The translations under genes and the position numbers were made by a program. From IMG/VR virus record IMGVR_UViG_3300032435_000001: DNA of 64,000 bases, one strand, 5' to 3'. The stretch's first letter is position 1; each line of letters starts with the position of its first letter. This DNA is from a virus. The notes under the pieces were generated by a model. That model did no database searches and had not been told where the DNA came from. It saw only the letters and a list, made by a program, of their open reading frames with translations. Below, in pieces: positions 2,387 to 51,283 of this stretch.

Positions 2387-5300
2387 ATGCCAAATGGAAT
2401 AAATAATATATCACCCTCAATTAGAGATTTTTTATTAAACAGAAATTTAATATTAAGTGATACTGTAAGTAATAATGGTTTAAGTGGTTATGGTGTTGGT
2501 TTAGGGTTACCTGTAACTATCTCTACTTATCCAGAAACAGTTATTGCGTCTAGTGATATTGAAATTGAAGGGCAATCTTATAGAGATTTAAATTTATTAA
2601 ACAACCCTTACGCATCAACTGTTGGGGACATTGTTGTTGATATAAATAGTAATAACATCCAAAATATTGGTAATTTACCAATAGGTACTCCCCAATCTGA
2701 ATACACTAATTATATTGGTTCAAGAATAATTGACTCATCTTTCACAAATTATGGTAATGATGGTAGGGTAAATTTACTAAGAAACTTATACCAACCGAGT
2801 GAATCTGAAAGGTATTTAGTTAGTTTGGATAATTCAAATAATAATGTTGAAAATTCTAATGGTGGTTATTTAGATAGAAATGGTAATTTAAACATTGGGG
2901 GACCTTCAACCAAAGCAATTAATATAATTGGTGGTATTTTAAATGGTGGTGGTATTGGTATTGGTGGTGATAGTAATTTTGATATAAGAAGTTCTTTAGC
3001 TGGTAGAGTATTAAACGGTATAGGTGTTTTAAATGATACCAAGTTAGGGGTTATTGGTGGTAGGGAATTATTAAAATCTTTAGCTAATAAAGTATCTTTT
3101 AACGCACAAAGGGAAATATTAGGTAATTTTAATTTAAATCCATTAAGTTTACTTAGTGGTAATGATTTTTTAGTACCAAATTATTCGATTACGGTAGGTA
3201 AAGATAAAGTAAGTAAAATTTTAGATATTGGTCTAAACATATTAGGTTTTGAAGCACCAAAAGGTTATTTATTTGAGGATTCGTCTTCTATTTTCTATGT
3301 GGAAAATAAAGTTGATACTAAAGATAGGTTATTATCACAAGTATCTAATACTGGTAAAGGTCAAATTATTTCATTATTTAAAAATTTAAATGAGAATACC
3401 TATAAAATGCAAATAACCGATTCTAGATTTAAAGGGGAATCCGTTATAAGTAATTTATATTTATTTAATAGTGGTAACGGTGCTATGTTAAACATGTTAA
3501 ACGCACCATTATTATTAGATGATAAAGGTAAAGTATTAGGTTCTTTAAAAAACGGCCCTAACACACCCATATCACCTAGTAATTATAAATTGGAGTCAAT
3601 GGTTAGGGATGGTGAATTTAGCTCTTTAAAAGGCCTTAAAATAGGTGAGGAGGGGTTTACTTGGGCTCAAGGTGTGAAAGAAGAGTTATTTCATTATGTA
3701 CTTGGTGATGGTGTTAACCTTACACCAGTTAATTCATCAAGTTCATTTGAAGCTTATGGTGATGTTAATATTAATAAGATTAAAAGGGGTTTACTAAACA
3801 CAACTAAAAATTTATTTAAATCTGGACATATAAACGTCATGGTTAGTAGTAGAGGTTTACGTTTAGATACAGAAGGTGAGATTGACAATGGGGTTAAGGT
3901 TTTTAGGGGTTTTAAAGGTGATAAAATGGATGGTCCAAGTTTCATTTCTAGAGGTTCTGGTGTTAAAAGTTTATCAGCTTTAGAGGGTGTTGCTGATGAT
4001 GCGAACATGGTTTTTTGTAGGTCTTGGACATCATTAGTTAAATATGATAAAGTTAGAAACTTACAAAAAAGTGATGGTTTAAAAAGTAATTACGGGTTAA
4101 GAAATAGAAATACAGTATCTAAATCGGTATTAGATGATAATGGTTTCGTTAGGGTAGCACCAACTAGAACTAAAGGTGAGATTGAAAACAATACTGAACT
4201 TGATGCTAAAAGATTCATGTTTTCAATTGAGAATTTAGCTTGGGCTGGGCAGACTGGTAATTTACCTAAGAATGAAATCGGACCAGGTGACCCATTAACT
4301 AAAACCAAAGGTAGGATAATGTGGTTTCCACCATATGATATTAAGTTTACGGAAAGTACTTCATTAAAATGGGATAGTTACGATTTCATTGGTAGAGGGG
4401 AACCTATGTATACTTATAACAATTCTGAAAGAAGTGGTAGTTTAAGTTTTAAGGTTATTATTGACCACGCATCTTACATGAACGATATTACTCTAATAGC
4501 TAAAGAATCTGGGTATGATACTGATGATTTTTTTAATAGTATTGTGGCTGGTTGTACTGATTTTGGTGATTATGATTTAAAAAATATAAGTGAGAATGAC
4601 CAAAATGCTTTAGATGTTGATAACGCTAGTAAGGTTGCTGAAAAACAAGATACGCCTAGTATAGTACCTTTAGGTTTTTCGTATTACTTTCCAAATGATG
4701 TGGTTTCAGATGCTTATTTTGATTATGAAAGGTTTGGTTCTGAGAATGGTGAGGTGACGGCTAGTTCGTATGGTAAGATACCTGAGGACCCTGGTTATAC
4801 TAAGGGTCAAACAATATTTTATGAGGATAGGAGTGATTTTGGTTTAAATAAAGCTTACTATGATACTAATTTTTTCACTAAATTAAGTGAGGATTTTAAA
4901 AAATGTGAACATTGTAAGATTGTGATTAAAGGTTACGCTAGTAAGGATGGTGTTACCAGTGTGAATAAAAGGTTATCTGATGATAGAGCTAAAACTATGA
5001 AAGGTATATTAATCAAGGAGTTGTTAGGTGGTAATGAGACTTCGGACCCGTTAAGTGGTAATAGGTTTAAACTAGTTGTTGGTAAAGGTGAATCAACTGA
5101 CTCACCAAGTAAAGGTGTTAAGGCGGTTGATTCAATATTAAATAAAAAAGCTAGAAGAGTTGACGTTACTTTTGTTGACGACCCTAGTAATAAGAAAATG
5201 TTAAATGAATTTAAGACTAATTTAAAATCTAATAACCTTAAAAAAATACTTAATGATAGGGTTAAGGGTAAATTTTTTAACGAATCATTATATTTTGAGA

Positions 5301-6301
5301 AGTTAAGACAAGATGATAAATTTACCTATGATTCCATAAGTGAAAAGATTAAATTCTTTCACCCAGCTTTTCATTCAGTAACGCCAGAAGGTTTTAATAG
5401 TAGATTAACATTTCTTAATCAATGTACTAGACAAGGGCCAACTAAGAACGCTAACTCACCTAGTAATTTAGTTTTTGGAGCCGCACCTGTTTCTATCCTA
5501 AGGATAGGTGATTTTTATCATACAAAGATTATAATTGATAGTTTAAATATTGACTATGATGGTGGGTTCGGTACGCAATGGGATTTAAACCCAGAAGGTG
5601 TTGGTGTTCAACCAATGATTGCTAATGTTTCAATATCATTTAAATTTATTGGTGGTCAATCATTAGATGGGCCTATTAATAAACTACAGAATGCGGTTTC
5701 ATTTAACTATTTCGCTAATACTGAGATTTATGATTCAAGAGCTGAATATTTTAGTAATGGTAGATATACTAGTGATGTGGTAAAGTTTAAACCTGAAGCG
5801 GGTTCACCTAAACCTAGTGAAACTAAAGTGGGTATTGAGTTAAATGAAGTAGAGGTTTTCGGTACTTTCAGTGCACCAAGTACTGAAACAGCTGTTGATG
5901 ATGGTAAAATTAAAATAACTGGTTTTAAGTATATTGAAGTAAGAGAAACGTTAACTCCAAATAAACGTTCGTTTATGTTTTCGCTTAAATTTTTAAACTT
6001 ACCAATTAATTTAGGTGAAAGTTCGGTTAGTGAATTCGTTTCAAAGGGTCTAAAAATTAGATTAAGTAATAATAACTCTTTTACGCATGAGGAAATTGTT
6101 AGTGAAATTAGTGGTGCTAGTGGTTCTTCTGGTTGTAAATCCTTTTCTTGTTTAAATGATAATTATATTTTGGGGGATAGAGATTCGGGTACTATTAGTT
6201 TAGTTAATGGTAATTATAATTTAGCTATAATTCATGACGGTAAAACTATCCAAACAATACCTGTTAAAATAAGTAGTGAACTTTATAAAGAATGGTTTTA
6301 A
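2387..6301 (+). CDS. Baseplate / tail-tube-initiator-like structural protein with an internal OmpA C-like peptidoglycan-binding domain
   Basis: Tube-initiator-like blocks WFPPYDIKF..FIGRGEPMYTY..SLSF and LRIGDFYHTKIII..WDLNPEG flank the OmpA motifs IKGYAS..N.RLS..RA and RRVDV; lies between tape measure and LysM wedge genes. Confidence 0.6.
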   Translation: MPNGINNISPSIRDFLLNRNLILSDTVSNNGLSGYGVGLGLPVTISTYPETVIASSDIEIEGQSYRDLNLLNNPYASTVGDIVVDINSNNIQNIGNLPIGTPQSEYTNYIGSRIIDSSFTNYGNDGRVNLLRNLYQPSESERYLVSLDNSNNNVENSNGGYLDRNGNLNIGGPSTKAINIIGGILNGGGIGIGGDSNFDIRSSLAGRVLNGIGVLNDTKLGVIGGRELLKSLANKVSFNAQREILGNFNLNPLSLLSGNDFLVPNYSITVGKDKVSKILDIGLNILGFEAPKGYLFEDSSSIFYVENKVDTKDRLLSQVSNTGKGQIISLFKNLNENTYKMQITDSRFKGESVISNLYLFNSGNGAMLNMLNAPLLLDDKGKVLGSLKNGPNTPISPSNYKLESMVRDGEFSSLKGLKIGEEGFTWAQGVKEELFHYVLGDGVNLTPVNSSSSFEAYGDVNINKIKRGLLNTTKNLFKSGHINVMVSSRGLRLDTEGEIDNGVKVFRGFKGDKMDGPSFISRGSGVKSLSALEGVADDANMVFCRSWTSLVKYDKVRNLQKSDGLKSNYGLRNRNTVSKSVLDDNGFVRVAPTRTKGEIENNTELDAKRFMFSIENLAWAGQTGNLPKNEIGPGDPLTKTKGRIMWFPPYDIKFTESTSLKWDSYDFIGRGEPMYTYNNSERSGSLSFKVIIDHASYMNDITLIAKESGYDTDDFFNSIVAGCTDFGDYDLKNISENDQNALDVDNASKVAEKQDTPSIVPLGFSYYFPNDVVSDAYFDYERFGSENGEVTASSYGKIPEDPGYTKGQTIFYEDRSDFGLNKAYYDTNFFTKLSEDFKKCEHCKIVIKGYASKDGVTSVNKRLSDDRAKTMKGILIKELLGGNETSDPLSGNRFKLVVGKGESTDSPSKGVKAVDSILNKKARRVDVTFVDDPSNKKMLNEFKTNLKSNNLKKILNDRVKGKFFNESLYFEKLRQDDKFTYDSISEKIKFFHPAFHSVTPEGFNSRLTFLNQCTRQGPTKNANSPSNLVFGAAPVSILRIGDFYHTKIIIDSLNIDYDGGFGTQWDLNPEGVGVQPMIANVSISFKFIGGQSLDGPINKLQNAVSFNYFANTEIYDSRAEYFSNGRYTSDVVKFKPEAGSPKPSETKVGIELNEVEVFGTFSAPSTETAVDDGKIKITGFKYIEVRETLTPNKRSFMFSLKFLNLPINLGESSVSEFVSKGLKIRLSNNNSFTHEEIVSEISGASGSSGCKSFSCLNDNYILGDRDSGTISLVNGNYNLAIIHDGKTIQTIPVKISSELYKEWF

Positions 6302-18624: not shown

Positions 18625-21027
18625 ATGTCTAGAGTAGAAAAAGATAATCTAGGTTTTTTAGGTGAGGACTATCAGTTAAGGCTGATAGCTCAACTAATAA
18701 CTGATAAAAAATTCGCTAACGATATATTAGACATTATAGATGTTAACTTTTTTGGTGATGAATACCTAAAACTAATAGCTGTTGAGATTAAAAATGCTTA
18801 TAATACTCATCAAGTTATACCAGACTTTGAAAGTTTAGAGTTTAGATTGAAAGAAAGATTAAGTAATACAATACAGAGAGACTTCGCAATAGGTCAGTTA
18901 AATAAAATCAAAGATGTTAACTATAATGATAGCTTCAAGGTTCAAGAAATAGCTATGAAATTCTGTAAGCAGCAAGCTTTGAAAAAATCTGTTTCTGAAA
19001 TAAACGTAATACTAGAAAGAGGTGATTATGAGGAGTATGATGAGTGTGAGGTTATACTAAAGAAAGCACTTTCAGTTGGGGAAAATAAAGATTTTAGTAT
19101 TCAATTAGATAATGATATTGATGGCGTTCTAGCTGACGACTTTAGAAACCCAATAGCGACTGGTATTAAAGGTTTTGATGAATACATGAATGGTGGTTTA
19201 GCTAAAACTGAACTAGGGATTATATTAGCTCCTTTTGGTGTTGGTAAAGCTTTACCTAATTCAAATAAAATTTACACACCAGAAGGGTTTAAGTTAATGG
19301 GGTCTATTAATGTTGGTGATAAAGTATTTGGTAGAAATGGTAAGGAGACAAATGTTATTGGTGTCTACCCACAAGGTATTCGACCAATATTCAAAATTAC
19401 TTTTAATGATACTACCAGTACTTTTTGTGATGAGGAACATTTATGGGCGGTCAATTCTAATGACCAACGTAATCACTCATCTTGTAAAGTTGATAACTCA
19501 TTTAAAGTAGTTAAAACTTCTGAACTAATCAATAATTTAACTTTCGGGACTGGAAAAGATTTGAATTTTAAAATCCCAATGGTTGAACCAATTGAGTTTA
19601 ACGAACAAGAATTACCAATTGACCCATATGTTTTAGGTGTAATGCTACGTGATGGTAATATGAAGTCGTCTACGTTTACTAGTAAGGATTTAGAAGTTGT
19701 TAATGAGGTTAGTAGGTTAATGTGTGGTGTTATATCCATAAAGGAAAAATGTTTAGATATTGATAAAGATGATGTCTTAGTTAAAGAATGTTTATCTCAT
19801 GTTTCTATTCATGGTATTACCGATAAATTAAAATCGTTAAGTTTATATAATAAAAAATCTAATAATAAATTCATACCTATTAGTTATCTTCATAATTCAA
19901 AAACTAATAGGTTAGAAATACTTAGAGGTTTGTTAGATGCTGATGGTAATGTGAATAAAAATGGTAGTATCGAGTACGTTAGCGTTTCAAAAAAATTAAT
20001 TGATGATGTTAAATGGTTAGTATTATCTTTAGGTGGTTTTTGTGAATTATCTATCGGAACACCTAACTACAGTTACGATGGTGTTAAGAAGGTTGGTTGG
20101 GAAGCTTATGTATTAATCATATCATTCCCAAGTGAAAATAAAATAAAACCATTTAAATTAGCTAGAAAAAATGAACTTCTCATTACTGGGGGTATTTATA
20201 ATAGCGGTAAATTTATCAAATCGATTGAATATTCACATAAAGAAGAAGCCACTTGTATAATGGTTGATAATGTGGAACAACTATTCGTTACTGACGATTT
20301 TATTGTTACACATAACACAACTATGATTACCAAGATAGCTAACAGTGCTCTAAATCAAGGTTTTAACGTTTTACAAATATTTTTTGAAGATAATGAGAAG
20401 GTCATACAACGTAAACACTACGCTTGTTGGACCAATATAGAGTTAAATGAGTTATCTAATCATAAAGAATTAGTAAAGAAAACCGTTATTAGTAATTTAG
20501 AAGCTGGTGGTGAACTTAGGTTGTTAAAAATGAATAGTGATAATATCACGATAGCTAAGATAAAACTAATGGTTAGGAAATTAATAGCTAACGGTTTTAG
20601 ACCAGACATGATTTTAATTGACTATATCGACTGTGTTGAACCATCAAGAAAAGTAGATGATACTAATGTTGGTGAAGGTAGAGTAATGAGAGAATTTGAA
20701 ACCATGTTAAATGAGTTTGATATGGCTGGATGGACAGCAGTACAAGGTAATCGTTGTGTTGCACTTGACACTAAGGTGGATATTGAGGGTAAAGGTACTA
20801 TTGAGATAAAAGATGTGGTGTTAAATGATAAAATTTTAACTAAAGATGGTTACAAAATGGTATCACATATTTTCCCAATTCAAAAGCAACCAGTGTATAA
20901 GATAAAATTAAAATCTGGTAAGGAAATTAAAGTGAGTAAAAAACATTTCTTCCCAACATCAGATGGGGTTTTGAGTTCAATTGAAAGTGGTTTAAGTATT
21001 GGTGTTAAGTTACTAATTAAAAAATAA
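18625..21027 (+). CDS. dnaB: Replicative helicase DnaB/gp41, N-terminal fragment; contains a cis intein and ends in a split-intein N-fragment
   Basis: IATG..GFD..MNGGL, Walker A APFGVGK|TT interrupted, IDYID, WTAVQGNR followed by an intein Cys1. Confidence 0.92.
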   Translation: MSRVEKDNLGFLGEDYQLRLIAQLITDKKFANDILDIIDVNFFGDEYLKLIAVEIKNAYNTHQVIPDFESLEFRLKERLSNTIQRDFAIGQLNKIKDVNYNDSFKVQEIAMKFCKQQALKKSVSEINVILERGDYEEYDECEVILKKALSVGENKDFSIQLDNDIDGVLADDFRNPIATGIKGFDEYMNGGLAKTELGIILAPFGVGKALPNSNKIYTPEGFKLMGSINVGDKVFGRNGKETNVIGVYPQGIRPIFKITFNDTTSTFCDEEHLWAVNSNDQRNHSSCKVDNSFKVVKTSELINNLTFGTGKDLNFKIPMVEPIEFNEQELPIDPYVLGVMLRDGNMKSSTFTSKDLEVVNEVSRLMCGVISIKEKCLDIDKDDVLVKECLSHVSIHGITDKLKSLSLYNKKSNNKFIPISYLHNSKTNRLEILRGLLDADGNVNKNGSIEYVSVSKKLIDDVKWLVLSLGGFCELSIGTPNYSYDGVKKVGWEAYVLIISFPSENKIKPFKLARKNELLITGGIYNSGKFIKSIEYSHKEEATCIMVDNVEQLFVTDDFIVTHNTTMITKIANSALNQGFNVLQIFFEDNEKVIQRKHYACWTNIELNELSNHKELVKKTVISNLEAGGELRLLKMNSDNITIAKIKLMVRKLIANGFRPDMILIDYIDCVEPSRKVDDTNVGEGRVMREFETMLNEFDMAGWTAVQGNRCVALDTKVDIEGKGTIEIKDVVLNDKILTKDGYKMVSHIFPIQKQPVYKIKLKSGKEIKVSKKHFFPTSDGVLSSIESGLSIGVKLLIKK
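19249..20316 (+). mobile_element. Class 3 intein (356 aa, Ala1) with LAGLIDADG domain, inserted in the DnaB P-loop
   Basis: GK|ALPNS...HLW...CIMVD...VTHN|T; W-C-T triplet; LGVMLRDG and LRGLLDADG blocks. Confidence 0.9.
20755..21024 (+). mobile_element. Split intein N-fragment (90 aa) of DnaB
   Basis: QGNR|CVALDTKV...SKKHFFPT (block B His)...stop; no C-terminal HN in this ORF. Confidence 0.9.
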
Positions 21028-21073
21028 TTTAATAATGTTTTAAAATGGTTAATAATAAAGGGTTAGAGTATGT

Positions 21074-21538
21074 ATGGAAGAACATAAATTAAATTTAGAA
21101 GATTTTGATTTAGATGAGATTGAAAGTATTGAGTTAATTGGTTATGAAGACACTATCGATATAACAGTAGATGATACACATATGTTTTACGCTAATGATA
21201 TTTATACGCATAATAGTTCAATTAAAGCTGAGGTTGTTGAGTCAGACCAAATGGGTGGTTCGATTAAGAAAGCGCAAATTGGGCATTTCATAGTTTCAGT
21301 TGCTAGAAGTAATGAGCAAAAAGATAGTGGTCACGCTAATTTAGCAATACTTAAATCTAGATTTGGTAAGGATGGTATTGTGTTGAGTGATTGCATTTTT
21401 GATAATTCAAGAGTTCAAATTGAGATTGTTGAGCAAGAATCTAAAACGTTCTTACAAAATACTTTTGATAAAAATTCTAGGGATTTAGATAGGGTTAAGT
21501 TGATTATGGATGCTAGTAAGAAAATTAAAGAAAGTTAA
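21074..21538 (+). CDS. dnaB: DnaB C-terminal fragment preceded by a 47-aa split-intein C-fragment (21074-21214)
   Basis: [21 protein letters not shown]|SSIK followed by helicase motifs MGGSIKKAQ and ILKSRFG. Confidence 0.92.
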
Positions 21539-49630: not shown

Positions 49631-51283
49631 ATGGCGAAAATTGAGAAAAGTATGGTCTATTTAGAACCAATAGAACATGTTTATATTCATAGGGAGAGTG
49701 GAAAGCGTTTCACATCGGTAACCAAAGTTCTATCTTCAATAGAACCTCATTTCGAGGGTGATAGAATAGCTGGTAATATCGCTAAACAATCAGACTCAAA
49801 CCCAAAAAAAAACCCAGCTTATATTGGGATGAATAAAGAACAAATATTAGATTATTGGCAAGAGTTGAATGACACTGCTAATATATACGGTACTATGGTT
49901 CATGAAATAGTTGAGAGATATCTATTAGCTAATAAAATGTATTTCACTAGCGACCCTTTTGAATTGAAGGTGATTAAAGCTTATGAAGATTTAGAGGTTG
50001 ATGAAGGTATTGAAATATACCCAGAGAGGATTATGTTTTCAGAAGAGTACGAATTAGCTGGCACTGCTGATTTAAAGATTGATATTAATGAAACATACTT
50101 TGATATTGGGGATTGGAAAGGTTTACCAATAGACACACCAATATTCACTAATAATGGTTGGAAAACTATGGCTAGCTTATCACATGGTGATAAAGTTTAT
50201 GATATGGATGGTAAATTATGTGATATTTTACATTTTTCCGAAATAAAAAATAAAGATTGTTTTGAAATTGAATTTGATAATGGTGAAGTAATAATATCTG
50301 ACCATGAGCATAGATGGTTGGTTTCATTTATGCGTAGTGGGAATTTAACTGATAAAGTTATGACATCAGAAGAATTATTTGAACACACTAATAAGTTAGG
50401 TACTAAAAGATGGTCATATAAAATACCTAAGGTTAAAATATGTAAAGCTTTGGATAATCAACACATTGATTTACCTTTAGACCCTTATTTATTGGGTGTT
50501 TGGTTATGTGATGGGGATAAAGATATTACCAAAACGATAATCGTTGATGAAAATGTTTGGTTAGAATTAAATTTGGTAAATGATAAACGTATACCAGATA
50601 CATTTTTTATGTCATCATATGAACAACGTGTGGGTTTATTACGTGGGTTTATGGATGTTAATGGTCATTATAACAAGTCACGTAAAAGATTTGTTATGTC
50701 AACAACTATAGAGTGGCAAGGAAATGAATTTAATAAGTTAGCGTCTTCACTAGGTATTAAAACAACTGTTATTAAATATAATAAAAAGGTTAATGGTGAA
50801 ATTGTTGACGTAATTGATATTTGCTTTAGTACAGATAATTTAAACCCATTTTTAAGTAAAGAGGTGTTAAATGTTGAGTATAATAATAAAACATTTAAAA
50901 ATATTATTAGGGTTAGTAAAGTAGAATCAGTGCCAACTAGATGTATCGAAGTGGGAAGTTTAACTAGTACTTTTTTATATGGGTTTAGTTTTAGTGTAAC
51001 ACATAACACAAATAAGGAATTCAATTTCTTCAATAAATTTGGTTATAAAACACTAAACAAACCTTTTGACCATCTCCAAGACTGCCAATATTCTATATAT
51101 TCAATGCAATTAAGTACTTACGCTTTGATGTGTGAAATGGAAACTGGTATGAAATGTAGACAAATATGGATTGGATATTGGGATAAAGTAAATGAGGTGT
51201 TTGAAAAGATACCAGTAATGTATTTAAAGTCTGACGCTAAAAAATTGCTAGACATACACAAGTACACACAATTATATAAATAA
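49631..51283 (+). CDS. PD-(D/E)xK exonuclease (RecB/Cas4-like) with intein
   Basis: SVT, GT.VH..VE.Y, E..., AGTADL, DWK|T split by the intein, Y..QLS.YA. Confidence 0.85.
   Translation: MAKIEKSMVYLEPIEHVYIHRESGKRFTSVTKVLSSIEPHFEGDRIAGNIAKQSDSNPKKNPAYIGMNKEQILDYWQELNDTANIYGTMVHEIVERYLLANKMYFTSDPFELKVIKAYEDLEVDEGIEIYPERIMFSEEYELAGTADLKIDINETYFDIGDWKGLPIDTPIFTNNGWKTMASLSHGDKVYDMDGKLCDILHFSEIKNKDCFEIEFDNGEVIISDHEHRWLVSFMRSGNLTDKVMTSEELFEHTNKLGTKRWSYKIPKVKICKALDNQHIDLPLDPYLLGVWLCDGDKDITKTIIVDENVWLELNLVNDKRIPDTFFMSSYEQRVGLLRGFMDVNGHYNKSRKRFVMSTTIEWQGNEFNKLASSLGIKTTVIKYNKKVNGEIVDVIDICFSTDNLNPFLSKEVLNVEYNNKTFKNIIRVSKVESVPTRCIEVGSLTSTFLYGFSFSVTHNTNKEFNFFNKFGYKTLNKPFDHLQDCQYSIYSMQLSTYALMCEMETGMKCRQIWIGYWDKVNEVFEKIPVMYLKSDAKKLLDIHKYTQLYK
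50120..51007 (+). mobile_element. Class 3 intein (296 aa, Gly1) with degenerate LAGLIDADG domain
   Basis: DWK|GLPIDTPI...HRW...TRCIEV...VTHN|T; LGVWLCDG and LRGFMDVNG blocks. Confidence 0.88.

Follow-up and report, generated by a model that had tools for sequence, protein, structure and literature searches.

A diverged gp41-8-type intein, very probably split by nature and active, in the replicative helicase of an uncultured T4-like phage

The closest described relatives of the element reported here are split inteins of gp41-type helicases. One of them, gp41-8, was found as a split intein in the GOS metagenome by Dassa et al. 2009 (PMC2677866), and it also appears in Carvajal-Vallejos et al. 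2012, as cited in PMC11168065. Both gp41-8 and gp41-1 trans-splice fast (PMC7090010; PMC11168065), and for both a positive IntN and a negative IntC have been reported (PMC2677866). Their native junctions are LNR/SA for gp41-8 and SGY/SSS for gp41-1, the slash marking the insertion point (PMC7090010 supplement). A further locus, gp41-7, is a fractured gene without a homing endonuclease gene (HEG), the state that Dassa et al. 2009 (PMC2677866) place as step III of their gene-breaking model. This HEG-free step III had previously been reported only for gp41-7, which belongs to another gp41 intein lineage than the one analysed here.

The window, by which we mean the whole 64,000-nt stretch of DNA that was analysed, comes from a large uncultured T4-like phage in which the replicative helicase, of the DnaB/gp41 type, is split over two adjacent genes (Table 1). 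The ATG of the second gene, ORF2, is its only possible start codon, and a purine-rich stretch (AAAGGG..GAG) is found 7-17 nt upstream of it. Since a promoter/terminator scan revealed no terminator-like site in the spacer between the genes, with promoter-like matches at chance level, both ORFs are probably on one transcript. In the Pfam comparison ORF2 gave a C-terminal match to Intein_splicing, and the Intein_splicing matches of the first ORF were weak. The upstream genes are an exonuclease gene and a 177-aa ORF; the neighbouring genes also include those for SSB, a UvsX/RecA-like recombinase, NrdB, NrdA and the baseplate wedge. This neighbourhood is a T4-like replication module, intact, in DNA of 30% G+C.

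Table 1. Features of the split helicase locus (positions are those of the window)
Feature	Position	Strand	Properties
N-precursor ORF, 800 aa	18625-21027	+	frame 0; helicase N-extein, contiguous first intein and terminal IntN; Pfam DnaB_C, LAGLIDADG_3, Intein_splicing
First intein, 356 aa, in Walker A/P-loop	19249-20316	+	contiguous; Ala at start; class 3 signature; LAGLIDADG domain
IntN, 90 aa, net charge +7	20755-21024	+	Cys1 (20755-20757) straight after QGNR; block B S61-x-x-H64
TAA stop and 46-nt spacer	21025-21073	+	stop 21025-21027, spacer 21028-21073; stops in all frames; no ORF
C-precursor ORF (ORF2), 154 aa	21074-21538	+	frame 1
IntC, 47 aa, net charge -14	21074-21214	+	block F Asp29; block G His46-Asn47
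Helicase C-extein, 107 aa, and stop codon	21215-21538	+	Ser+1 first

The intein is inserted after the Arg of a Q-x-N-R motif (QGNR/S), with Ser at +1, a point that we take to be DnaB motif H3. With gp41-8 it shares the NR/S junction, unlike the SGY/S of gp41-1, as well as a phage DnaB/gp41-like helicase as host and membership of class 1 with Cys1 and Ser+1. The split is also alike (about 89/45 aa in gp41-8 and 90/47 aa in the window), and in both the IntN is positive and the IntC negative. When the halves were aligned, IntC was 55% identical to gp41-8 (over 38 aa) versus 45% to gp41-1, and IntN was 39% identical to gp41-1 and approximately 48% to gp41-8, the last figure being counted by eye (about 43 of 89 positions). 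The earlier note on this DNA, made from the letters, had proposed that the sequence and insertion site closely resemble gp41-8 and that the intein probably belongs to that family. The insertion site and the family stood, but not the closeness: to judge from these alignments, the intein appears to be a diverged gp41-8-type member at the gp41-8 insertion point and not a near copy. Since the identities are only 39-55%, the kinetics of gp41-1 and gp41-8 are not transferable to it. Note that gp41-8 itself, looked for by motif among the database matches to IntN and ORF2, was not found there.

The loci also differ in their organization. At the gp41-8 locus, a HEG separates the halves and a gene for DnaG primase lies upstream (PMC2677866), whereas the window has no HEG in that place, carries a second intein in the helicase gene and has the exonuclease gene and the 177-aa ORF upstream. 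The gp41-1 intein (PDB 6qaz, 6riz), which is the best match among solved structures, shares the position of the split in the fold, the block B S-x-x-H, the block G THN/S and the charge polarity (PMC2677866); it differs in its lower identity, in its IntC of 37 aa versus 47 aa, and in its insertion point, which from the extein context Q-T-T-R-S-G-F-S of P0075 would lie 3 residues downstream in the same motif. As in gp41-7, the two halves sit next to each other on the same strand, a short spacer between them and the endonuclease gene absent, but gp41-7 belongs to the gp41-1 allele group, in a cyanophage-like gp41, with another insertion point and intein lineage. Under the strict definition of Dassa et al. 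2009, a fractured gene carries a free-standing HEG between the intein halves, where the window has the 46-nt spacer; moreover, no homologue of the family's Vsr-like endonuclease was found anywhere in the 64 kb. What the window adds is a gp41-8-type split intein, diverged and free of a HEG, within a phage context that is long and readable. It leaves the current understanding of inteins unchanged, and it provides a candidate protein-ligation tool that may be orthogonal to the existing pairs.

The borders of the element were established by comparison with a sister phage. When viral contigs were scanned with ORF2, 43 related loci emerged. One of these, L005, runs colinear with the window for 12 kb (approximately 82% nucleotide identity) and lacks exactly two of its segments, 19249-20316 and 20755-21214. 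The intein-free helicase of L005 matches PHROG 19, the DnaB-like replicative helicase (E 7e-57), and Pfam DnaB_C (5e-13). In-silico removal of both inteins from the window generates a 461-aa helicase that is 86.3% identical to that of L005 (461-463 aa), with no internal gap. The residues round both junctions are identical in the two phages but for one, the junction of the split intein having been checked over 20 residues on each side. The precise absence of the two segments in L005, together with the gapless alignment of the spliced helicase, confirms the borders exactly.

The intein halves carry the complete class 1 catalytic set: Cys1, the block B S61-K-K-H64, the block F Asp (in T-I-D-I-T) and Y-T-H-N/S with Ser+1. 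Across 36 family members Ser61, His64, the block F Asp and the terminal His-Asn are invariant, and at least 80% of these 36 have Cys1, one row having a tblastn match that began at residue 2. The best PDB match of IntN is the gp41-1 intein (6qaz, E 3.7e-13, residues 4-90), and the start of ORF2 matches 6qaz residues 89-128 (E 6e-4); the break therefore falls where it does in the HINT fold of gp41-1. With this IntN match, and with borders that agree to the base with the empty site of the sister phage, the element is far beyond chance. Calculated over IntN and the IntC core (Nei-Gojobori), dN/dS was 0.11 versus L011, the closest relative of this intein, described below (dS 0.90), and 0.10-0.21 versus more distant alleles. 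These values indicate that the intein itself, beyond the exteins, is under purifying selection, and the conserved catalytic residues together with a dN/dS of about 0.1 predict that it is active in protein trans-splicing.

The 6qaz match, the empty site in L005 and the complete class 1 residues all support what the earlier note had put forward, a naturally split intein in a DnaB/gp41 helicase. Its description of the halves was equally correct on recounting: IntN, straight after QGNR, has 17 Lys versus 10 acidic residues (6 Asp and 4 Glu), and IntC, which ends in THN followed by SSIK, has 15 acidic residues (8 Asp and 7 Glu) versus 1 Lys. The halves do lie in different frames, 46 nt apart and free of any endonuclease gene, and the charge complementarity that it had emphasized is of the N-positive/C-negative type reported for gp41-1 and gp41-8 (PMC2677866).

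How common is this arrangement? With IntN as query, 1.84 billion representatives were searched exhaustively, and 249 matches were obtained at E <= 1e-3. Among the best 150 representative clusters, 122 stop at the end of IntN, give or take a few residues, and so represent split N-precursors. Another 13 run straight into an IntC, which makes them contiguous mini-inteins, and the upstream context seen most often among these 150 is Q-x-N-R/C. ORF2 has 423 homologues of similar length, and an IntC ending in THN/S near residue 47 opens 118 of the best 120. The split state is the norm for this family, which has hundreds of metagenomic members, mostly split, and has been known since 2009. In INPHARED (GenBank phages), no match to IntN or ORF2 was obtained at E <= 1e-5, a search in which a 90-aa query may miss distant relatives, and a DNA search with the whole locus gave no match at the threshold used. 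The extein alone matched only helicases among the GenBank phages, at less than 30% identity.

The related loci present the same site in different states. It is empty in 7 loci, and in 11 it holds a contiguous mini-intein with a linker of 4-5 codons. In 18 others the halves are 1.07-1.32 kb apart, and each of the 11 distinct gaps examined among these contains one ORF of 348-410 aa. Compared with Pfam, the gap ORFs matched DUF559 above the cut-off in 5 of 6 cases and MTES_1575 below the cut-off in all 6; the gap gene of the wide-gap loci is a Vsr-like HEG. Short gaps were found in 6 loci: three with 66 nt (L001, L003 and L004), L011, L012 and L034. In L011 (5984-6010) the halves overlap as ATGA right after a run of six A, so that one extra A would generate a contiguous mini-intein; this overlap could be either true translational coupling or a homopolymer sequencing error. 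The 332-nt gap of L012 (338-669) reads as the N-terminal part of the Vsr-like endonuclease gene, and the 245-nt gap of L034 (5756-6000) as the C-terminal catalytic part of the endonuclease, with in-frame stops. Both look like decay intermediates.

Two sister phages, L020 (contiguous, 5981-5987) and L013 (fractured, 4730-6009), have flanks that are approximately 91.6% identical and differ by an insertion of about 1.28 kb, the endonuclease gene, in the intein linker. One lineage therefore has both a contiguous and a fractured intein. The three architectures are interleaved in a tree of the intein sequences, in which the window pairs with L011, likewise endonuclease-free (support 98/92). With split halves and no HEG, the window represents step III of the gene-breaking model. 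Taken as a series, from the empty site through the contiguous mini-intein, the HEG-fractured gene and the HEG remnants to the clean split halves, these loci back the 2009 model with a compact natural set of examples that includes sister genomes.

The first intein of the helicase interrupts the P-loop, with the junctions GVGK/ALPNS...FIVTHN/TTMI. It carries the W-C-T signature of class 3 (block B D-E-E-H-L-W, of the pattern D-x-x-H-x-W, block F A-T-C-I-M-V with its Cys, block G T-H-N), a class whose features were defined in PMC6195587, and a LAGLIDADG_3 domain (E 3.5e-8). This element is absent, to the base, from L005 and present at 42-49% identity in L001, L003, L004, L008, L009, L010 and L011. 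A similar pair is known from the DnaB of Mycobacterium smegmatis, where a class 3 intein occupies the P-loop and a class 1 intein lies further on in the ATPase domain (PMC6195587). The likeness is that one replicative helicase holds both kinds of intein in these two regions. However, in M. smegmatis both are contiguous, an endonuclease domain is missing from the P-loop intein and motif H4 is the site of the second, whereas in the window the P-loop intein has the LAGLIDADG domain and the other intein, which is split, is placed at Q-x-N-R.

We consider it very likely that the locus encodes a working gp41-8-type intein of class 1, split by nature, and that it interrupts a DnaB-like replicative helicase of the phage just behind the Arg of Q-x-N-R. 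In the proposed mechanism, both genes would most likely be co-transcribed, with translation of ORF2 starting at an ATG of its own. Electrostatic attraction would then bring the Lys-rich IntN and the acidic IntC together to build one HINT domain, in which Cys1 would form a thioester, Ser+1 would attack it and Asn47 of IntC would cyclise. After an O-to-N shift, the peptide bond ...AVQGNR-SSIKAE... would join the exteins. These steps are taken from the class 1 pathway. Removal of the P-loop intein would be required as well; it would take place in cis, probably along the class 3 route, and the two reactions together would yield the 461-aa helicase. In evolutionary terms, we would see the locus as a fractured gene from which the free-standing endonuclease gene has disappeared.

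The spacer itself may be what is left of the 3' end of that endonuclease gene. In frame 0 it reads FNNVLKWLIIKG followed by a stop, which resembles the conserved C-terminal tail of the endonucleases of relatives (for example IINECLKFLK and a stop). In a local alignment of the spacer DNA with the 3' ends of the relatives' endonuclease genes, the score was equalled or beaten by 17 of 1000 shuffles. The peptide FNNVLKWLI was in the top 1.2% of the 9-mers of the window when compared with a profile of the C-terminal tail, a rank that is not significant after about 30 placements. We regard these results as suggestive only. A bolder reading would make the spacer the last relic of the Vsr-like HEG and so the dated end-point of invasion and decay, and would see in the two mechanistically different splicing reactions (class 3 in cis at the P-loop, class 1 in trans at Q-x-N-R) a post-translational checkpoint on replisome assembly and not mere tolerance; we think this improbable.

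Other explanations of the split gene were considered. It is quite improbable that the intein halves are inactive, and that the helicase is either a non-covalent two-piece enzyme held together by them or a dead gene replaced by another helicase. In its favour, genes fractured by an endonuclease and without any intein can yield working enzymes, as reported for the Aeh1 NrdA (cited in PMC2677866). However, all the catalytic residues are kept here and the low dN/dS extends across the intein itself. Moreover, the break interrupts a conserved ATPase motif, in which some 137 extra residues would be hard to tolerate, and the adjoining replication module (SSB, recombinase, exonuclease, NrdB and NrdA) is intact.

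It is very improbable that the two ORFs are one contiguous mini-intein split by a sequencing or assembly frameshift, the outcome that the earlier note had itself named as fatal to its proposal. In 11 related loci this family has a contiguous mini-intein at this very site, and the ATGA overlap of L011 would be fused by one extra A; both observations speak for the idea. Nevertheless, frame 0 closes at 21025 and the frame of IntC is interrupted by several stops, the last of them at 21056-21058, and the ORFs can therefore not be joined by any single indel. The 46-nt spacer, furthermore, is without counterpart in the contiguous alleles, the start position of ORF2 is common to about 118 of 120 homologues, and the exact ORF2 sequence is recorded on 6 contigs. 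In a separate exact look-up, the window's own ORF2 returned no contig.

A translational bypass of 50 nt is known from T4 gene 60. This phage is T4-like and its 46-nt gap is of close length, but that the gap is bypassed in translation, or removed from the RNA, to give a contiguous intein can be dismissed almost entirely: after the stop at 21056-21058 the IntC frame has, up to the ATG, only the codons AGG, GTT, AGA, GTA and TGT, none of which is the take-off AAA, the same spot in relatives holds 1.1-1.3 kb with a whole gene or 66-332 nt, which could not be crossed, and 46 nt is too short for a self-splicing intron.

Finally, traces of other inteins were observed. In the window, the segment 50141-50680 (+), inside the ORF at 49631-51283, is 26% identical to the first intein (tblastn, E 6e-14), so this ORF probably contains another intein, and the segment 53859-53966 (+) is 42% identical to the IntC core (E 3e-6). 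Extra IntC-like matches (52-74% identity over 19-24 aa) were also present approximately 2-6 kb downstream of the helicase in L002 (8337-8402), L007 (8114-8170), L008 and L009 (12090-12146) and L043 (9539-9619). These suggest further inteins in the neighbouring replication or nucleotide-metabolism genes of the relatives.
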